From IMG/VR virus record IMGVR_UViG_3300006139_000503: DNA of 64,000 bases; one strand, given 5' to 3'. The notes under the pieces were generated by a model that was not told the origin of the DNA, made no database searches, and was given only the letters and a program-made list of their open reading frames with translations. Positions 137-63,439 of this stretch are shown one piece after another. The first letter of the stretch is position 1. The number at the start of each line of letters is the position of its first letter. The translations under genes were made by a program, and so were the position numbers. The stretch is from a virus. Its lineage: Duplodnaviria; Heunggongvirae; Uroviricota; Caudoviricetes.

Positions 137-165
137 TTGCAAACGTGAAATGCATATGCTATAAT
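137..165 (+). promoter_or_regulatory. Near-consensus sigma-A promoter TTGCAA-17-TATAAT driving a convergent antisense RNA
   Basis: TTGCAA at 137-142, a 17-nt spacer, TATAAT at 160-165. It points toward the 3' end of the minus-strand peptide gene. The conserved box gcatatgcTATAATgccaataggcaaaa recurs, inverted, next to the other two peptide copies. Confidence 0.5.
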
Positions 166-171
166 GCCAAT

Positions 172-250
172 AGGCAAAAGGAAATGACAGTAATCTGTCA
201 TGGATACACAAAGCAAAAACCCCGGAAAGGCACTTCCGGGGTTTTCTTTA
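172..250 (+). ncRNA. Candidate antisense sRNA (putative RNA antitoxin) ending at bidirectional terminator
   Basis: Predicted TSS about 7 nt after TATAAT. Internal hairpin tgacag-taatc-tgtca. It ends at the terminator aaaaaccccggaaaggcacttccggggttttcttt (218-250), which also terminates the convergent peptide mRNA. Confidence 0.35.
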
Positions 251-277
251 TCCCTTTACGGAGGGACAAGACCGAGG

Positions 278-376
278 TTAGTTGTCATTATTACCGTTGT
301 CTAACCATTTGATAATGTAGTGGCAGGCTACATTAACCATGACAGCGGATAAAAAGGAAATAACAAACTCTGTCAA
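278..376 (-). CDS. 32-aa hydrophobic toxin-like peptide (Fst/type I toxin-like), family copy 1, TTG start
   Basis: (M)TEFVISFLSAVMVNVACHYIIKWLDNGNNDN. A TM-like N-terminus is followed by a KW and acidic/polar tail. An SD aaggggg lies about 8 nt upstream. It shares the CHYIIKWLD core with the copies at 33738 and 34260. Confidence 0.45.
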   Translation of the reverse strand: MTEFVISFLSAVMVNVACHYIIKWLDNGNNDN

Positions 377-423
377 TGGACACACCCCCTTTCCGTTGCC
401 GGATTGGGTATGACAACGGAAAC

Positions 424-1971: not shown

Positions 1972-2406
1972 ATGGCATGTGTATTTGATGTAGCAAAATA
2001 CATCCTTTGTCAATGTGGGAAAATGAGCACATGGAAACTCCAAAAGTTGTGTTACTATGCACAGGCGTGGCATCTTGCGTGGACAGGTAATCCCATCTTC
2101 GCAGAAGATTTTCAGGCGTGGTCAAATGGCCCGGTATGCCCTGAATTATTCCATGCGCATCAGGGGAAATTCTCTGTTGATATACAAGATATCATTAAAG
2201 GAGACGATAACAGCCTGAACGACGACGAAAAAGAATCAATTGATATCGTCCTTAATGGATACGCAGGCAGAGAACCTTATGACTTAAGGGAACAGACTCA
2301 TGAAGAATCGCCCTGGAAAGATGCAAGAGGTGATTTACCGGATGGTGCACGATGCCAGAACGTAATCACTAAATCTTCTATGGGGGAATACTATGGAAGC
2401 TTATAA
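1972..2406 (+). CDS. Panacea-domain (DUF4065) protein, SocA/PanA-like antitoxin
   Basis: The DUF4065 signature is clear: KLQKLCYYAQAWHLAWTGNPIFAEDFQAWSNGPVCPELF. 144 aa. The next ORF follows 4 bp downstream, giving a TA-like bicistron. Confidence 0.7.
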   Translation: MACVFDVAKYILCQCGKMSTWKLQKLCYYAQAWHLAWTGNPIFAEDFQAWSNGPVCPELFHAHQGKFSVDIQDIIKGDDNSLNDDEKESIDIVLNGYAGREPYDLREQTHEESPWKDARGDLPDGARCQNVITKSSMGEYYGSL

Positions 2407-33442: not shown

Positions 33443-33737
33443 ATTAACTCCTCCTCGTTTTTTCTTGAATTCGTGCCTCGGCAGTTTCTTGAAAAATAAA
33501 AATGCCTGAGCGTGTAAACTCAGGCTAAACTTTTCCTATTTGTGTAAACAAAAATTATGAGTATTAACTGCACGAGAATCGCTTTGTGGCAATGTCCACT
33601 GAAATAGCGGGTGTCGGGTTATGTCAATTGCAATCCCCGTTACAAGCGATTTTGGAAAAAGATAGCAAGTCACCAAATAATATGTTATAATTTCCCTGTT
33701 GCTCACCGATACCCGGCAACAGGGAGGAGGTGTTCAC

Positions 33738-33836
33738 ATGGAGTTCTTTGCATCTTTTTTAATCGCTGTCGCGGCTGGTGTAACTTGCCACTGCATCATC
33801 AAATGGTTAGACGGAGACGACAGGAGCAACAAATAA
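33738..33836 (+). CDS. 32-aa hydrophobic toxin-like peptide, family copy 2
   Basis: MEFFASFLIAVAAGVTCHCIIKWLDGDDRSNK. GGAGG lies 8 nt upstream. Preceded by the conserved 5'UTR hairpin gttgctcaccgatacccggcaac and an extended -10 promoter (TGtTATAAT at 33683-33691). Not in the ORF track (below 60 aa). Confidence 0.45.
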   Translation: MEFFASFLIAVAAGVTCHCIIKWLDGDDRSNK

Positions 33837-33868
33837 CCTAGTGGGTGCTTTGCCACTATAAAAGAAAA

Positions 33869-33983
33869 GAAGAATCCCCGAACTGTGGTGCAACACGGTT
33901 CGGGGATTCGTTCTTTGTTCACATGGAACTTTTGCATCTTTTTTGCCTATTGGCATTATAGCATATGCAAAAACTTTTTTCAA
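33869..33983 (-). ncRNA. Candidate convergent antisense sRNA locus for peptide copy 2 (promoter TTGAAA-17-TATAAT on minus strand plus shared terminator)
   Basis: On the minus strand: TTGAAA (33978-33983), a 17-nt spacer, TATAAT (33955-33960). The transcript would run into the bidirectional terminator gaatccccgaac...gttcggggattc (33869-33916). Confidence 0.35.
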
Positions 33984-34259
33984 TATACTTTTGGCAATGT
34001 GAACTACCCACGAGCTAAAGCTCGGTGGGTTTCCTGCTTCATCGACCTCGTAACCTACTATAAGGATATCGTTACACAAAAATTGATTATTTGAGATGTC
34101 CACAGAGATAGTGTCCTATAGAGATAGCGAGCATCGGATTCTTGTAGCCATAATCCCCTCTACATTTTTTCGTATGAATTAATTATAGAAGTTTGTCGGA
34201 TAATATGTTATAATTTTTTCGTTGCTCACCGATACCCGCAACGGGGAGGAGGTGCTTGC

Positions 34260-34358
34260 ATGGAATTTTTTATCTCTTTTTTAGTTACCGTTTTGGGAGG
34301 TGTAGCCTGCCACTACATCATCAAATGGTTAGACGGTGACGGCAAAAGCAACAAATAG
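34260..34358 (+). CDS. 32-aa hydrophobic toxin-like peptide, family copy 3
   Basis: MEFFISFLVTVLGGVACHYIIKWLDGDGKSNK. Same SD, 5'UTR hairpin (gttgctcaccgatacccgcaac) and extended -10 promoter as copy 2. Confidence 0.45.
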   Translation: MEFFISFLVTVLGGVACHYIIKWLDGDGKSNK

Positions 34359-34391
34359 CCTAGTGGGTGCTTTGCCACTATAAAAGAAAAG

Positions 34392-34507
34392 AAGAATCCT
34401 CAGACGGTACTGCCATACCAATCTGGGGATTCGTTTCTTTTGCCCACATGGACTTTTTATCTCTTTTTGCCTATTGGCATTATAGCATATGTGAAAACCT
34501 TTTTCAA
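34392..34507 (-). ncRNA. Candidate convergent antisense sRNA locus for peptide copy 3
   Basis: On the minus strand: TTGAAA (34502-34507), a 17-nt spacer, TATAAT (34479-34484). It reads into the terminator hairpin at about 34392-34438. Confidence 0.35.
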
Positions 34508-34535
34508 TATGCCCTTATCAAAAAATTATCCTTAT

Positions 34536-34672
34536 CAAATTGACCCTCTCACGACTGAAGTCGTAAGATTCCTGCTTCATCGACTTCGTAACCTCCATCT
34601 CCACAGGCGTAACTTTCCGTCATTCCAACGGTAGATATATTTTTTAGACTGATGACAACCTCAATCCTTCAT
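34536..34672. repeat. ~137-bp structured repeat, copy A (second copy at 51963-52100, ~90% identity)
   Basis: Shared sequence caaattga(a/c)cctctcacga.tgaagtcgt.agattcctgcttcatcgacttcgtaacctccatctccacaggcgtaactttccgtc.ttccaacggtagatatat...ctgatgacaacctcaatccttcat. It contains mutually exclusive hairpins (ctcacga..tcgtgag versus gaagtcg..cgacttc). Confidence 0.6.
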
Positions 34673-34810
34673 GTCTAAAGCCACGAGTATTCTTGACATA
34701 CTTCATAAAATGCAAAAAGTAACTGTCCTCAACCTAGTAAACTGAGCCATAGAAAACAAAAAAAGTCCCCCACCACCGAAACGAATCCAGTGATAAGGAA
34801 CTTTCCCATT

Positions 34811-35170
34811 CTAAAAGACTATTTTATCTTTAATCTTCTGACGTTGTTGCTCGGTTAATATTGAATTTTCGACTAATGAATAGTTATCATGTAGCCATTC
34901 ATTAGTTTTTCTTCTGAAATACTCCGCTGGTTGTACTATTTGTGCTGTTCTGAAATCGAGTTTTCCCTGCGTAAAATCACTGCTCATAAATCTATTTGCT
35001 CCATCACCAGTTATCAATAGCTGGTCAATTAAGACTTTTTCATTAACTCCGTCCTGAACAAGTACATGCTCGATATTATTGATATAGGTTAGCAGACTTT
35101 CAAATGAAAGACACAGAATTAGTCTGCCATATCCTTCGCCACTAGTTTTGATAATAGTATATTCATTCAT
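34811..35170 (-). CDS. Hypothetical protein
   Basis: Start chosen at the internal ATG (MNEYTIIKTSGEGYG) with AGAGGAGAG upstream. 119 aa. It is divergent from the small-peptide promoter at 35250. Confidence 0.35.
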   Translation of the reverse strand: MNEYTIIKTSGEGYGRLILCLSFESLLTYINNIEHVLVQDGVNEKVLIDQLLITGDGANRFMSSDFTQGKLDFRTAQIVQPAEYFRRKTNEWLHDNYSLVENSILTEQQRQKIKDKIVF

Positions 35171-35249
35171 GACAGACTCTCCTCTCTTATCTACTTTACT
35201 GTTCCGAACCAATTAGAGCTAGACATTTTTTGTTCCTTCAAATAATAAA

Positions 35250-35278
35250 TTGACAATATATGGAATGTTTTGTAGAAT
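35250..35278 (+). promoter_or_regulatory. Consensus sigma-A promoter TTGACA-17-TAGAAT
   Basis: TTGACA (35250-35255), a 17-nt spacer, TAGAAT (35273-35278). It drives a ~110-nt structured leader and the 36-aa peptide gene. Confidence 0.55.
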
Positions 35279-35390
35279 GTACATAGGTTCTACCTAAGCA
35301 CGGTAGGACGGTTTGTCTTCCATCAGCGAGAACAAGCTCTGTTTACATAGAAACCTTTCGAGGAATCTACGAAAGGAGGACACTTTGCAT

Positions 35391-35501
35391 ATGATAACAA
35401 TTTCGCTACAATCTATTTATTACACGTTAGGTATTGCCAGTATTTTATGTGGTGCTGCATACAAATTAGGTTATGAGATTGGTAAGAATGCAAGAAAGTA
35501 A
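35391..35501 (+). CDS. 36-aa hydrophobic peptide (second toxin-like / bacteriocin-like family)
   Basis: MITISLQSIYYTLGIASILCGAAYKLGYEIGKNARK. The SD aaaggagga lies 9 nt upstream, and part of it pairs in the hairpin cctttcg...cgaaagg (possible SD sequestration). A 10-bp hairpin aagtaactgt...acagttactt spans the stop codon. A degenerate partial copy of the gene's 3' end occurs at about 34700-34745. Confidence 0.4.
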   Translation: MITISLQSIYYTLGIASILCGAAYKLGYEIGKNARK

Positions 35502-35891
35502 CTGTCCTCAGCCTGGTAAACTGAACAGTTACTTTCTTAGTATTGTAACATAGTAATTTTTCAAGGCAAACCATTCTGCTCTAGGTAGTACCTTGCTAAA
35601 TAGAAATGACTTCCATGACCGCCGCTCACCAAAATCCGGTCATTAATGTGTTATAGTATAATTAATTCTATAGCCGTCAAAACCTCTTTGGCTCACAAGC
35701 ATCTAACGGATAATTGCCTGTTTTAATAGTAAATTTCTTTCTATGCTCACTATTTTAAAACAAATCTATGTCATTGTCAATAGATTAATCCATATTTGTA
35801 TCCCATAGCTCAACTACTTGATATATGAACATGTATTGGCTCTAGTGGCTTATTCTCATTTGTCCAAAAATAAACCCAGTACGAGCCAAAC

Positions 35892-51962: not shown

Positions 51963-52100
51963 CAAATTGAACCTCTCACGAATGAAGTCGTGAGATTCCT
52001 GCTTCATCGACTTCGTAACCTCCATCTCCACAGGCGTAACTTTCCGTCGTTCCAACGGTAGATATATCTTTTTAGGCTGATGACAACCTCAATCCTTCAT
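51963..52100. repeat. ~137-bp structured repeat, copy B (see 34536-34672)
   Basis: Located just upstream (in gene orientation) of the antirepressor gene starting at 51859. Confidence 0.6.
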
Positions 52101-55910: not shown

Positions 55911-56482
55911 CTGTTCACTTTCCTCCGGCTCCTATCCCAGCCATCTCCAAATTCCATGCACTCGTATGGGTATTCTTTGTAGAATTCCTCACCGTACTGG
56001 ATGAAAAAAAAAACGGGGTGCTGCCAAGTTTCACCCACCTAAAAGAACAAGCGGGCTAGTTGCCTAACCCGCTTGCCACTGTGCTACAAGCTCCTATGCA
56101 TTCTATTATGTTCAGCATGGCTCGCTGTTCCATGCTGCCTCCAAAGAGATTTCTGTAAGTTTCCCTACAGTACAGACTATATCATCGCCCTTTTTCTCAG
56201 GGTGTCTACCACTTCGGACACCGACCGCTTGCGCCCTACTCCCTTACGGGATAGTCGTTGAACGTTCTCCTGTTCGGAGCTTCGCTGCTGATTGCCCATT
56301 GCAAAAGCGTTTAGGATTTAACCTTGCGCCATCTCGCAATTTCTTTCTACTTTCGTTACCGTCACGCTTAGATTTCTTTCATTCTTACGTTGTGGTATTG
56401 CGAGCTTTAGGGGTTCCCAGCAATTCGATAGATTTGCATGTGAAATTACTCTCACATGGGACTATTTAGCATTGCCTGCTAG

Positions 56483-62970: not shown

Positions 62971-63439
62971 ATCGTTTTCTCCTTTCGGCTATTTATTTTT
63001 ATGGATAAGCCCATAACAGAACACCCGAAACGATGCCGCGTAGCCAGATTCATAACTAAAGTCTCGGATGCTCTATATATGCTCATCAACCGCCCCGGAG
63101 GGCGGCTGTCTCAATATTCTATTGTCTTCCCTTTACTCTGTCTTTTCAGACGTCCAGAAACAATCCGGCATTTAATTCCTCGGAACATAGCCGATGTGCC
63201 CTCGGGCACTGATATCGTTGCGTTGGACGCCCTCGAAGATTTTCAAGGTGAAGTCCCTCATGGTGACGCATTCAGGCAGATGCGACCTCTTTTCACATCT
63301 AATTGGGTGTAACTCTGGGGGTTTTCACTATCCGAACCATAGGCTTACTTCCTACGCACCCAGCGACGCATCTGGTAGCAGATGTACTCTCACAGGCGGA
63401 TAACCGCTCGTGCACTGATTACTCAGAGCGATAGTATCT

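Follow-up and report, generated by a model that had tools for sequence, protein, structure and literature searches.

A stretch of viral DNA of 64,000 nucleotides (nt), hereafter the window (Caudoviricetes; IMG/VR virus record IMGVR_UViG_3300006139_000503), contains three ~310-bp modules, each with a small open reading frame (ORF) and a convergent antisense promoter, and these modules very probably represent type I toxin-antitoxin (TA) loci of the par/Fst type. They belong to a large clade found in prophages of gut Lachnospiraceae and in small plasmids that is without a name in the protein-family libraries and source databases checked; the kind of locus is itself known. In all three copies, the start region of the toxin gene, comprising the portion distal to the Shine-Dalgarno (SD) sequence, the start codon and the first codons, recurs as a direct repeat flanked by the terminator and the antisense promoter. 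An antisense RNA transcribed across this repeat would therefore be complementary to the translation initiation region of the toxin mRNA, and it is predicted to end at the very hairpin that terminates that mRNA.

The in silico evidence covers module architecture, covarying RNA pairings, an ORF under purifying selection and a homologous relationship with the Fst locus of Streptococcus pneumoniae. The first-pass annotation of this DNA had proposed a toxin-like, type I TA-like module in three copies, a view that is now supported by ~170 unique related modules; it missed the direct repeat of the start region, and hence the par/Fst-type identification.

Module architecture and predicted RNA pairing

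The three modules lie at 33677-33986 (copy 2), 34200-34510 (copy 3) and ~137-432 on the minus strand (copy 1), and share one layout. An extended -10 promoter and a structured 5' untranslated region (UTR) come first, a GGAGG sequence and an ORF of 32 codons follow, and a bidirectional terminator precedes the convergent TTGAAA-17-TATAAT promoter. Between copies 2 and 3, which are spaced with a period of 522 bp, identity is 82.8% over ~310 nt. The window has exactly three occurrences of a 27-nt box, TTTTGCCTATTGGCATTATAGCATATG (153-179(-), 33941-33967 and 34465-34491), against a chance expectation of none. There are exactly two copies of the 5' UTR segment GTTGCTCACCGATACCCG and three of the ORF core. 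The peptide core CHYIIKWLD, initially taken to be common to all copies, is present in copy 3 and in the copy at the start of the window; copy 2 has CHCIIKWLD.

In copy 2, the toxin promoter reads as the -16/-10 element TATGtTATAAT (33681-33691, plus strand), preceded by a weak -35 sequence, TAGCAA (33663-33668); the pattern TATG-TATAAT is at least 90% conserved across the family. The predicted toxin mRNA, comparable to RNA I of par, is ~222 nt long (33698-33919, plus strand; fold -80.5 kcal/mol, z = -4.4). Its 5'-end arm GUUGCUC (33698-33704) is predicted, from minimum free energy (MFE) folds and family covariation, to pair with GAGCAAC within the tail codons (33824-33830), in the manner of the upstream helix (5'-UH) of par, or else with a local GCAAC (33716-33720). 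Between these elements, an anti-SD segment (CACC...CCC) and the SD sequence GGGAGGAGGUG (33722-33732) form a candidate SD-sequestering stem resembling the 5' stem-loop (5'-SL) of par (33705-33732, plus strand), as indicated by class-specific consensus folding. The ORF (33738-33836, plus strand) encodes the peptide MEFFASFLIAVAAGVTCHCIIKWLDGDDRSNK. Immediately past its stop codon lies a predicted hairpin, TAGTGGgtgctttgCCACTA (33839-33858, plus strand), whose ...AGCCT... following the stop is kept in the family consensus, and then a GC-rich, bidirectional intrinsic terminator with T-runs on both strands, which would be common to both RNAs (33872-33909). The direct repeat of the start region, equivalent to the direct repeats DRa and DRb of par and template of the presumed targeting segment of the antitoxin, occupies 33916-33944 (plus strand). 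The antitoxin promoter, TTGAAA-17-TG-c-TATAAT, lies on the minus strand (33955-33983), and the predicted antitoxin RNA, comparable to RNA II, is ~87 nt long (33862-33948, minus strand; z = -5.9), with a start placed from the position of the -10 element. Its 5' half is A-rich and without structure and is followed by the terminator hairpin.

Copy 3 repeats this plan on the plus strand, with a TATGtTATAAT promoter at 34204-34214, a predicted toxin mRNA at 34221-34443 (z = -3.0), an SD sequence at 34243-34254, and a 5' arm GUUGCU (34221-34226) that pairs with AGCAAC (34347-34352). Its ORF (34260-34358) encodes the peptide MEFFISFLVTVLGGVACHYIIKWLDGDGKSNK, found in exactly this form, and unnamed, on 14 JGI contigs. 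The bidirectional terminator is seen in the folds at 34394-34432, and the direct repeat (34442-34468) has three differences from the cognate DRa, all of them G·U-compatible. On the minus strand are the TTGAAA-17-TATAAT antitoxin promoter (34479-34507) and a predicted antitoxin RNA of ~88 nt (34385-34472; z = -4.3). Copy 1 is a complete module on the minus strand (137-432), with a TGcTATACT toxin promoter at 424-432, a predicted mRNA at ~206-417(-), and an ORF with a TTG start (278-376, minus strand; peptide MTEFVISFLSAVMVNVACHYIIKWLDNGNNDN). Its 5' arm GUUGUCAU (410-417) has its partner AUGACAAC at 281-288(-), and the terminator (~214-246) and direct repeat (176-209, minus strand) are followed by a TTGCAA-17-TATAAT antitoxin promoter (137-165, plus strand) and a predicted antitoxin RNA at ~172-250(+). 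Each of the three direct repeats has a 1-nt deletion in mid-repeat relative to the start region.

Most elements described in the first-pass annotation thus stand: both plus-strand ORFs with their peptides, the TGtTATAAT (33683-33691 in copy 2 and 34206-34214 in copy 3, plus strand), GGAGG and terminator of each copy, which are seen in the sequence and the folds, and the convergent antisense promoters (minus strand, 33983-33955 and 34507-34479), both with a TG and with 11 of 12 positions matched. The GTTGC...GCAAC hairpin assigned to the 5' UTR is a real inverted repeat, but its segments fit better into two different helices; folds and covariation pair its 5' arm with the segment at the stop codon and its supposed loop with the SD sequence.

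The proposed pairing between antitoxin and toxin start region was examined in an alignment of 57 non-redundant sequences, in each of which a linker joins the start region to the 5' half of the antitoxin. Two blocks are paired, at -8..+4 and +8..+21 relative to the start codon, with a bulged, poorly paired stretch between them. At many block positions all four bases occur and the partner base follows. In this alignment, 84.2% of cells are paired, compared with 63.3% in shuffled controls (0 of 500 as high) and 35-43% when the partner is slid; cells with double changes number 238 versus 84 in shuffles, and the covariation score is 0.589 versus 0.22 in shuffles and at most 0.155 after sliding. Start regions score a mean of 33-37 against their own downstream repeat and 17 against non-cognate ones, and the cognate repeat is the best or second best match in 65 of 69 modules. 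The predicted cognate duplexes amount to -44.3, -37.5 and -34.5 kcal/mol for copies 1, 2 and 3, respectively, versus -11 to -28 for non-cognate combinations; crosses between copies 2 and 3 are predicted at -25 to -28. Furthermore, mismatches are strongly polarized: 245 are G·U-compatible transitions and 34 are of the opposite polarity (p = 1e-40, uncorrected for relatedness), a bias that fits only pairing of the sense start region with the antisense repeat. Taken at the level of sequence, these patterns indicate that toxin-antitoxin pairing is under selection.

A second set of pairings is predicted within the toxin mRNA itself. The MFE folds of the full-length copy 2 and copy 3 mRNAs pair the 5' arm with (G)AGCAAC in the last part of the ORF, and the same Watson-Crick helix between the 5' end and the stop region is 7-10 bp long in the majority of modules; in copy 3 it has 6 bp. 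Its arms occur in covarying forms, namely GTTACCG:CGGTAAC, GTTGTCAT:ATGACAAC (copy 1), TGTTGTCCT:AGGACAACA, and TGTTGCTC:GAGCAACA (copy 2). Class-wise consensus folds pair the SD sequence with upstream anti-SD segments, and the mean probability that the SD sequence is paired is 0.80 over 74 mRNAs. In the largest class, the anti-SD CCGCCCCT always accompanies the SD sequence AGGGGGTG, and CCGCCTCC accompanies GGAGGTG; strict covariation is seen between CCCCT:AGGGG and CCTCC:GGAGG, along with C-G to U-A changes in a sister class. The copy 2 SD sequence alternatively pairs with the U-rich codons 5-7. A global RNAalifold analysis of 70 full-length mRNAs recovered the terminator, whose stem shows heavy compensatory covariation, and an ORF-internal hairpin that also shows compensatory changes, and missed the 5' helices; the latter were analysed by class and by direct comparison of arms because sub-classes were misaligned in the global alignment.

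The antitoxin promoter lies within a highly conserved block, GCATATGC-TATAAT-GCCARTAGGC-AAAA (33941-33983, 34465-34507 and 137-179 in the window), in which all but two positions are at least 80-90% conserved across ~150 modules; the toxin promoter has no comparable conservation. Two palindromic elements flank the -10 sequence, GCATATGC upstream and GCCARTAGGC downstream, and a -16 TRTG motif together with the promoter consensus appears to account for only part of the sequence conservation. The block could conceivably be an operator for a phage or host regulator that turns the antitoxin off at prophage induction or superinfection, which would make the peptide a programmed effector of lysis timing or abortive infection, not a post-segregational killer. 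We consider this unlikely; its lysis-timing or abortive-infection version derives from the position of modules next to lysis cassettes.

Coding selection and family assignment

Retrieval of modules through the antisense-promoter box, which is independent of the ORF, yielded an intact SD sequence, start codon and KW[LF]D ORF in 68 of 75 loci. The pooled ratio of nonsynonymous to synonymous substitution rates (dN/dS) is 0.38, with 0.42-0.53 in the N-terminal and transmembrane (TM) part and 0.21 in the C-terminal core, a value slightly flattered because ORF detection was anchored on KWLD; K-W-L-D is invariant also in loci retrieved independently of the ORF. As had been anticipated, conservation is higher in the regulatory boxes than in the TM segment, and it is the TM segment and the tail in which variation is concentrated. 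The sequences thus mark the ORF as a gene under purifying selection, which bears directly on a very improbable alternative, namely that the ~220-nt transcript is a non-coding regulatory small RNA (sRNA) in which the small ORF is incidental. It is true that the transcript is highly structured (z = -3 to -4.4), that its helices run through the ORF, and that Rfam types the related family RF02442 (SpF66) as "Gene; sRNA", that is, as non-coding. Against this stand the retention of SD sequence, start and frame, the low dN/dS and the invariant KWLD, and specific masking of the SD sequence together with an antisense RNA directed at the start codon would serve no purpose unless the ORF is translated.

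The encoded peptides fall into two length classes, of 28 and 32 amino acids (aa), start with ATG, TTG or GTG, and end in tails such as GDK or GDDKSNK. AlphaFold predicts a single helix over residues 2-30 (predicted local distance difference test score, pLDDT, 83). They show the Trp between a hydrophobic TM helix and a charged C-terminus that is a trait of the Fst/Ldr superfamily, and the nearly invariant TM Gly (G14) aligns with the Gly of Fst and PepA1. The copy 3 TM motif is TVLGG, that is, TxxxG.

The family link that decides the assignment is at the RNA level, via SpF66. The consensus of RF02442 carries AGGAGG, AUG and a 32-codon ORF ending in ...CKWLDGKE (translation MSLILELVLTIIADVIAGIILYFVCKWLDGKE), and the family profile matches this translation with an hhalign probability of 96.3% (E = 1.5e-9). 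Several relatives of the window modules pass the SpF66 model at full length (L016, L093, L047, L034 and L042; 42.5-52.6 bits against a gathering score of 42), as does the copy from an Aerococcus plasmid (65.1 bits), and the ends of the SpF66 matches coincide exactly with the predicted mRNA ends in L016 and L047 and lie within a few bases of them in the others. The F66 RNA is a 239-nt transcript, confirmed by Northern blotting, between SP2168 and SP2169 of S. pneumoniae TIGR4 (PMC3395615), and its neighbour, F67/srn503, carries the annotation of an Fst-family toxin (PMC12323649). In S. pneumoniae R6, two tandem Fst homologues lie between fcsR and adcA; one of these is toxic on overproduction, and an antisense RNA of ~65-75 nt was detected (Fozo 2010, PMC2887945). 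The peptide of the SpF66 consensus itself matches NCBIfam NF033608 (E = 1e-3). We take SP2168 and SP2169 to be fcsR and adcA, and the F66 locus and the tandem R6 locus to be one and the same. Because the SpF66 consensus carries AGGAGG, AUG and an ORF, RF02442 is best regarded as a type I toxin mRNA whose family extends far beyond Streptococcus.

Direct comparison at the peptide level points in the same direction at lower confidence, with hhalign probabilities of 60% for Fst (2KV5) and 44% for PepA1 (4B19); both alignments run end to end and place the TM Gly and the Trp/Val-Leu junction in register.

Several observations weigh against the par/Fst assignment or qualify its supports. Neither Pfam Fst_toxin nor NCBIfam type_I_tox_Fst recognises the peptides of the window; none of 52 family members matched PF13955 (Fst_toxin), the clade peptides gave no match to NF033608, and just 4 of the 52 matched Ldr_toxin (PF13940), weakly (E = 0.04). 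Such models are insensitive to peptides of this kind: Fst and PepA1 themselves, at 22.8 and 24.3 bits, score under the Pfam cut-off of 36. The P/D/S/TxxxG motif of the TM segment is mostly replaced by AxxxG, with AVAAG in copy 2 and AVMVN, which has no Gly, in copy 1. The window mRNAs fall below the SpF66 gathering score of 42, with 20.5, 17.8 and 18.9 bits for copies 2, 3 and 1; these sub-threshold matches span the full model and have matching ends (33698-33919, 34225-34443 and 204-423(-), respectively). The SD sequence of copies 2 and 3 has two candidate partners in the folding models, the upstream CACC/CCC or the downstream UCUUUUUU. Moreover, the covariation statistics are inflated by kinship among the sequences, and gene conversion could in principle homogenise the direct repeats; the latter is insufficient as an explanation because homogenisation at the DNA level cannot yield the G·U polarity bias.

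Searches of Pfam, NCBIfam, PHROGs, PADLOC and PDB sequences with the peptides gave nothing significant, and a 45-aa upstream-extended ORF used as query found only two mis-started proteins. A literature search with the motif HYIIKWLD returned no papers, and one under the name SpF66 returned malaria-vaccine papers only.

Relatives, carriers and proposed mode of action

A scan of IMG/VR with a degenerate DNA pattern for CH[YC]IIKWLD gave 94 stretches, 80 of them listed, and the same pattern occurs in at least 120 stretches of species-representative genomes. By record title, the genome stretches among the matches listed are mostly from Lachnospiraceae and other Clostridia (Dorea, Blautia, Mediterraneibacter, Enterocloster, Acetatifactor and Hungatella). 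Together, the viral and genomic stretches comprise 172 unique modules with 139 unique peptides, and an equivalent of the antisense promoter is present in 136 of 160 family modules. A profile search of 1.84 billion representative sequences returned 457 clusters at 50% identity (E <= 1e-3), some of them with variant cores, for example CHLICKWLD, SHLVCKWLD and AYYLCKWLD; the source databases supplied a name for none of the ten clusters looked up. To the Lachnospiraceae belong also Clostridium bolteae and C. asparagiforme. Ldr/Fst-like sequences have been reported in these two species (PMC2887945, PMC6563280) and may belong to the present clade.

By tblastn, copies are found on plasmids of 2.4-9 kb in Mogibacterium, Waltera, Aerococcus and Mediterraneibacter gnavus and on larger ones in Lactococcus, Carnobacterium and Enterococcus; among the matches listed, none lies under an annotated feature. 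The Mogibacterium and Aerococcus plasmid copies have the same layout as those of the window, and the former adjoins rep. Among GenBank phages, the module is confined to the bajarodino viruses PQ006100, PQ006166 and PQ006183 (7-8.5 kb, rodent gut) and one human faecal phage, the latter with a weaker, peptide-only match; these matches fall under no feature, a "hypothetical protein" or a "DNA binding protein".

The commonest neighbour of the module is phage lysozyme, at 47 loci, on either side and mostly in the orientation of the toxin gene. Upstream and co-oriented are holin (15 loci) and a recurrent unannotated protein, putatively tail-fibre-like (23 loci); mostly downstream and in the opposite orientation are serine recombinase (19 loci), tyrosine integrase and helix-turn-helix (HTH) repressors. 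Thus, the lysis-to-integrase end is where prophages usually carry the module. In the window, copy 1 has the 3' end of an r1t-type holin gene (1-93) on one side and an Amidase_2 endolysin gene (535-1404) on the other; copies 2 and 3 are flanked by a host Aminotran_5 gene and, on the opposite side, by an RnlB-like gene plus integrase.

This setting is the foundation of the main rival explanation, in which the peptide is an accessory of the prophage lysis cassette, whether a holin-like or antiholin protein or an agent of lysis timing, superinfection exclusion or abortive infection, and the antisense RNA tunes it to the phage life cycle. The abundance of lysozyme and holin neighbours, with integrase, recombinase or repressor usually downstream, the placement of copy 1 between holin and endolysin, and weak, sub-threshold matches to holin families all favour it. 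However, complete modules also occur away from lysis genes, beside the host Aminotran_5 gene and on the 2.4-9-kb plasmids, once next to rep; the module always has its own promoter and terminator, and copy 1 is oriented opposite to the lysis genes. Moreover, the homologue in S. pneumoniae resides on the chromosome and is toxic by itself (PMC2887945). We therefore regard a lysis-cassette or abortive-infection role as improbable as the sole explanation; it could coexist with a par/Fst-type TA function.

The suggestion that the module is actively duplicating is not borne out: the tandem copies 2 and 3 are 17% diverged and kept as a pair in five independent metagenome contigs, and copy 1 belongs to another lineage. 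In one contig the similarity stops in the spacer of the antisense promoter, where unrelated DNA supplies a TTGCAA -35 sequence at the same spacing and is followed by a different element, which defines the border of the module and argues against ongoing duplication. Such borders also bear on a possibility to which we assign next to no weight, namely that a larger gene decayed and left the modules as its fragments, or that they are functionless selfish repeats akin to miniature inverted-repeat transposable elements (MITEs). Several copies per genome, the many viral-contig matches at contig ends and the database "proteins" that extend past the peptide might be taken in its favour. Yet the modules have sharp borders, from the toxin promoter to the antitoxin -35 sequence, and no terminal inverted repeats, and they combine purifying selection on the ORF (dN/dS 0.38) with compensatory covariation of the RNA pairings. 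A degraded larger gene and an absence of purifying selection had both been raised as outcomes to look for, and neither was found. The extended entries appear to be gene-calling artefacts. They are public "proteins" of 90-170 aa (P0004, P0018, P0057 and P0143) that open with the toxin peptide and continue past its stop codon across the terminator and the repeat, probably as gene calls under an alternative genetic code or on mis-assembled reads.

On the par/Fst-type reading, we propose that a constitutive extended -10 promoter would yield a toxin mRNA of ~220 nt that is translationally inert, its SD sequence paired upstream (in copy 2 possibly with codons 5-7) and its 5' end held by a stretch of 6-10 nt at the stop codon. 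A strong convergent promoter would produce an antisense RNA of ~85 nt ending at the same bidirectional terminator, whose unstructured 5' half would pair with the toxin mRNA at -8..+4, including the start codon, and at +8..+21 (codons 3-7), leaving a bulged gap between. Binding, probably nucleated at the complementary terminator loops as in par of pAD1, would block initiation. Should antitoxin transcription stop, through loss of the element or possibly through transcriptional shut-off, the more labile antitoxin would decay and the single-helix membrane peptide of 28-32 aa would be made, causing cell arrest or death; the outcome would be stabilisation of the prophage, island or plasmid carrier. 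In this scheme we infer the transcript ends, RNA stabilities, toxicity, membrane target and role from the family.

These findings assign a function and mechanism, at the graded confidence stated above, to a very common gene pair, present also on many gut viral contigs and on small plasmids of Firmicutes, that lacks a name in current annotation, and would explain a recurrent "empty" intergenic stretch at prophage ends. They point to a probable reason why prophages and plasmids are stable in species that are difficult to manipulate, could offer counter-selection cassettes of the kind reported for C. difficile, and correct the Rfam classification of SpF66 from sRNA to what is evidently a toxin mRNA. 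They reveal no new principle.

Several other elements of the window deserve mention. A separate repeat of ~130 nt, with the exact core TTCCTGCTTCATCGACYTCGTAACCT, occurs in three copies (~34000-34110, ~34540-34660 and ~51965-52085) and on its minus strand gives sub-threshold matches to RAGATH-18 (27 bits; gathering score 44.9) and HPnc0580 (28 bits; gathering score 37). It was considered as a part of the module and rejected, as it is absent from all 214 related loci examined. Because one copy of this repeat follows each of copies 2 and 3, the unit of the tandem duplication is the module plus the ~130-nt repeat. Farther downstream, a 36-aa ORF (35392-35502; MITISLQSIYYTLGIASILCGAAYKLGYEIGKNARK), without a Pfam match, is a candidate gene for a small hydrophobic peptide; ahead of it are a TTGACA-17-TAGAAT promoter (35250-35278), a leader of ~110 nt and AAGGAGG. 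A 30-nt direct repeat (93% identity) covers its stop codon (35495-35524) and recurs at 34716-34745, and the two repeat copies flank an RnlB-antitoxin-like gene (34811-35212, minus strand). The 35250-35530 region and the repeat at 34716-34745 may constitute another type I-like module. Beside copy 1, a SocA/Panacea-domain antitoxin-like gene (1972-2406, plus strand) directly downstream of the Amidase_2 endolysin gene and the unannotated 150-aa ORF after it (2410-2862) are a candidate for a further TA or defense system. The window also encodes a group I catalytic intron in its phage-like part (56153-56477, minus strand; Rfam RF00028, full model, 82.5 bits) and a RAGATH-16 RNA (63313-63384, minus strand; RF03047, 75.1 bits, above the gathering score).

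Comparison with known systems

In the Ldr/Rdl and Hok/Sok systems the antisense gene lies opposite the 5' leader and a leader ORF is present, whereas the antisense promoter of the present modules is located on the 3' side, beyond the terminator, and no leader ORF precedes the toxin ORF. The type I TA systems of Clostridioides difficile prophages (such as CD0977.1-RCd11 in phiCD630-1) likewise combine small membrane toxins with antisense RNA and are reported to help maintain their element (PMC7699646). They are functional analogues in prophages of one gut Clostridia species with a different toxin family, and NCBIfam CD_typeI_toxin gave no match to the five family peptides scanned.

SprA1AS of Staphylococcus aureus is encoded on the 3' side of its toxin gene and acts on the start region through non-overlapping complementarity (T1TAdb paper). 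The toxin of this SprA1/SprA1AS pair, PepA1, is a 30-aa peptide of the Fst superfamily that aligns end to end with the present family, with the Gly and W-L in register; it differs in its PxxxGC motif and Arg-rich tail and in the modest hhalign probability.

The defining features of par of pAD1 are convergent promoters, a bidirectional terminator, the repeats DRa and DRb, a 5'-SL hiding the SD sequence and a 5'-UH hiding the 5' end (PMC7472228). At the level of sequence, the modules have their counterparts of the Fst, RNA I and RNA II elements in convergent promoters, a shared terminator, a two-block direct repeat, an SD helix and a 5'-end helix; the toxins also agree in their size of ~30 aa, their single TM helix, the Trp/Val-Leu-Asp junction and a charged tail that closes with S-N/R-K. 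In contrast, AxxxG replaces PxxxG and a Cys-His-Tyr core is conserved in the modules, their predicted antitoxin is ~85 nt long versus the "~40" of the review, and their carriers are mainly Lachnospiraceae prophages, pAD1 being a conjugative plasmid; the Fst models are silent on the modules, and the direct hhalign comparison is of intermediate strength. In par, a U-turn in the terminator loop nucleates the kissing complex, a feature that not all homologues have (PMC7472228). A comparison of the terminator loops of the three window copies by eye, without a systematic count, found no consistent YUNR (U-turn) motif.

The closest relatives found are the tandem fst loci of S. pneumoniae (RF02442 SpF66 = srn502/F66, with F67/srn503). 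The pneumococcal peptide has DxxxG and no C-H-Y and is encoded at a fixed chromosomal locus, in contrast to the prophages, islands and plasmids that carry the present modules, and the window copies reach just 18-21 bits with its RNA model, as would be consistent with a diverged sub-clade. Nevertheless, the SpF66 consensus peptide, which ends in ...CKWLDGKE, has the Gly-to-Trp spacing of the present family, the tandem arrangement is shared, and in the pneumococcal locus the antisense RNA has been detected and toxicity demonstrated (PMC2887945, PMC3395615).

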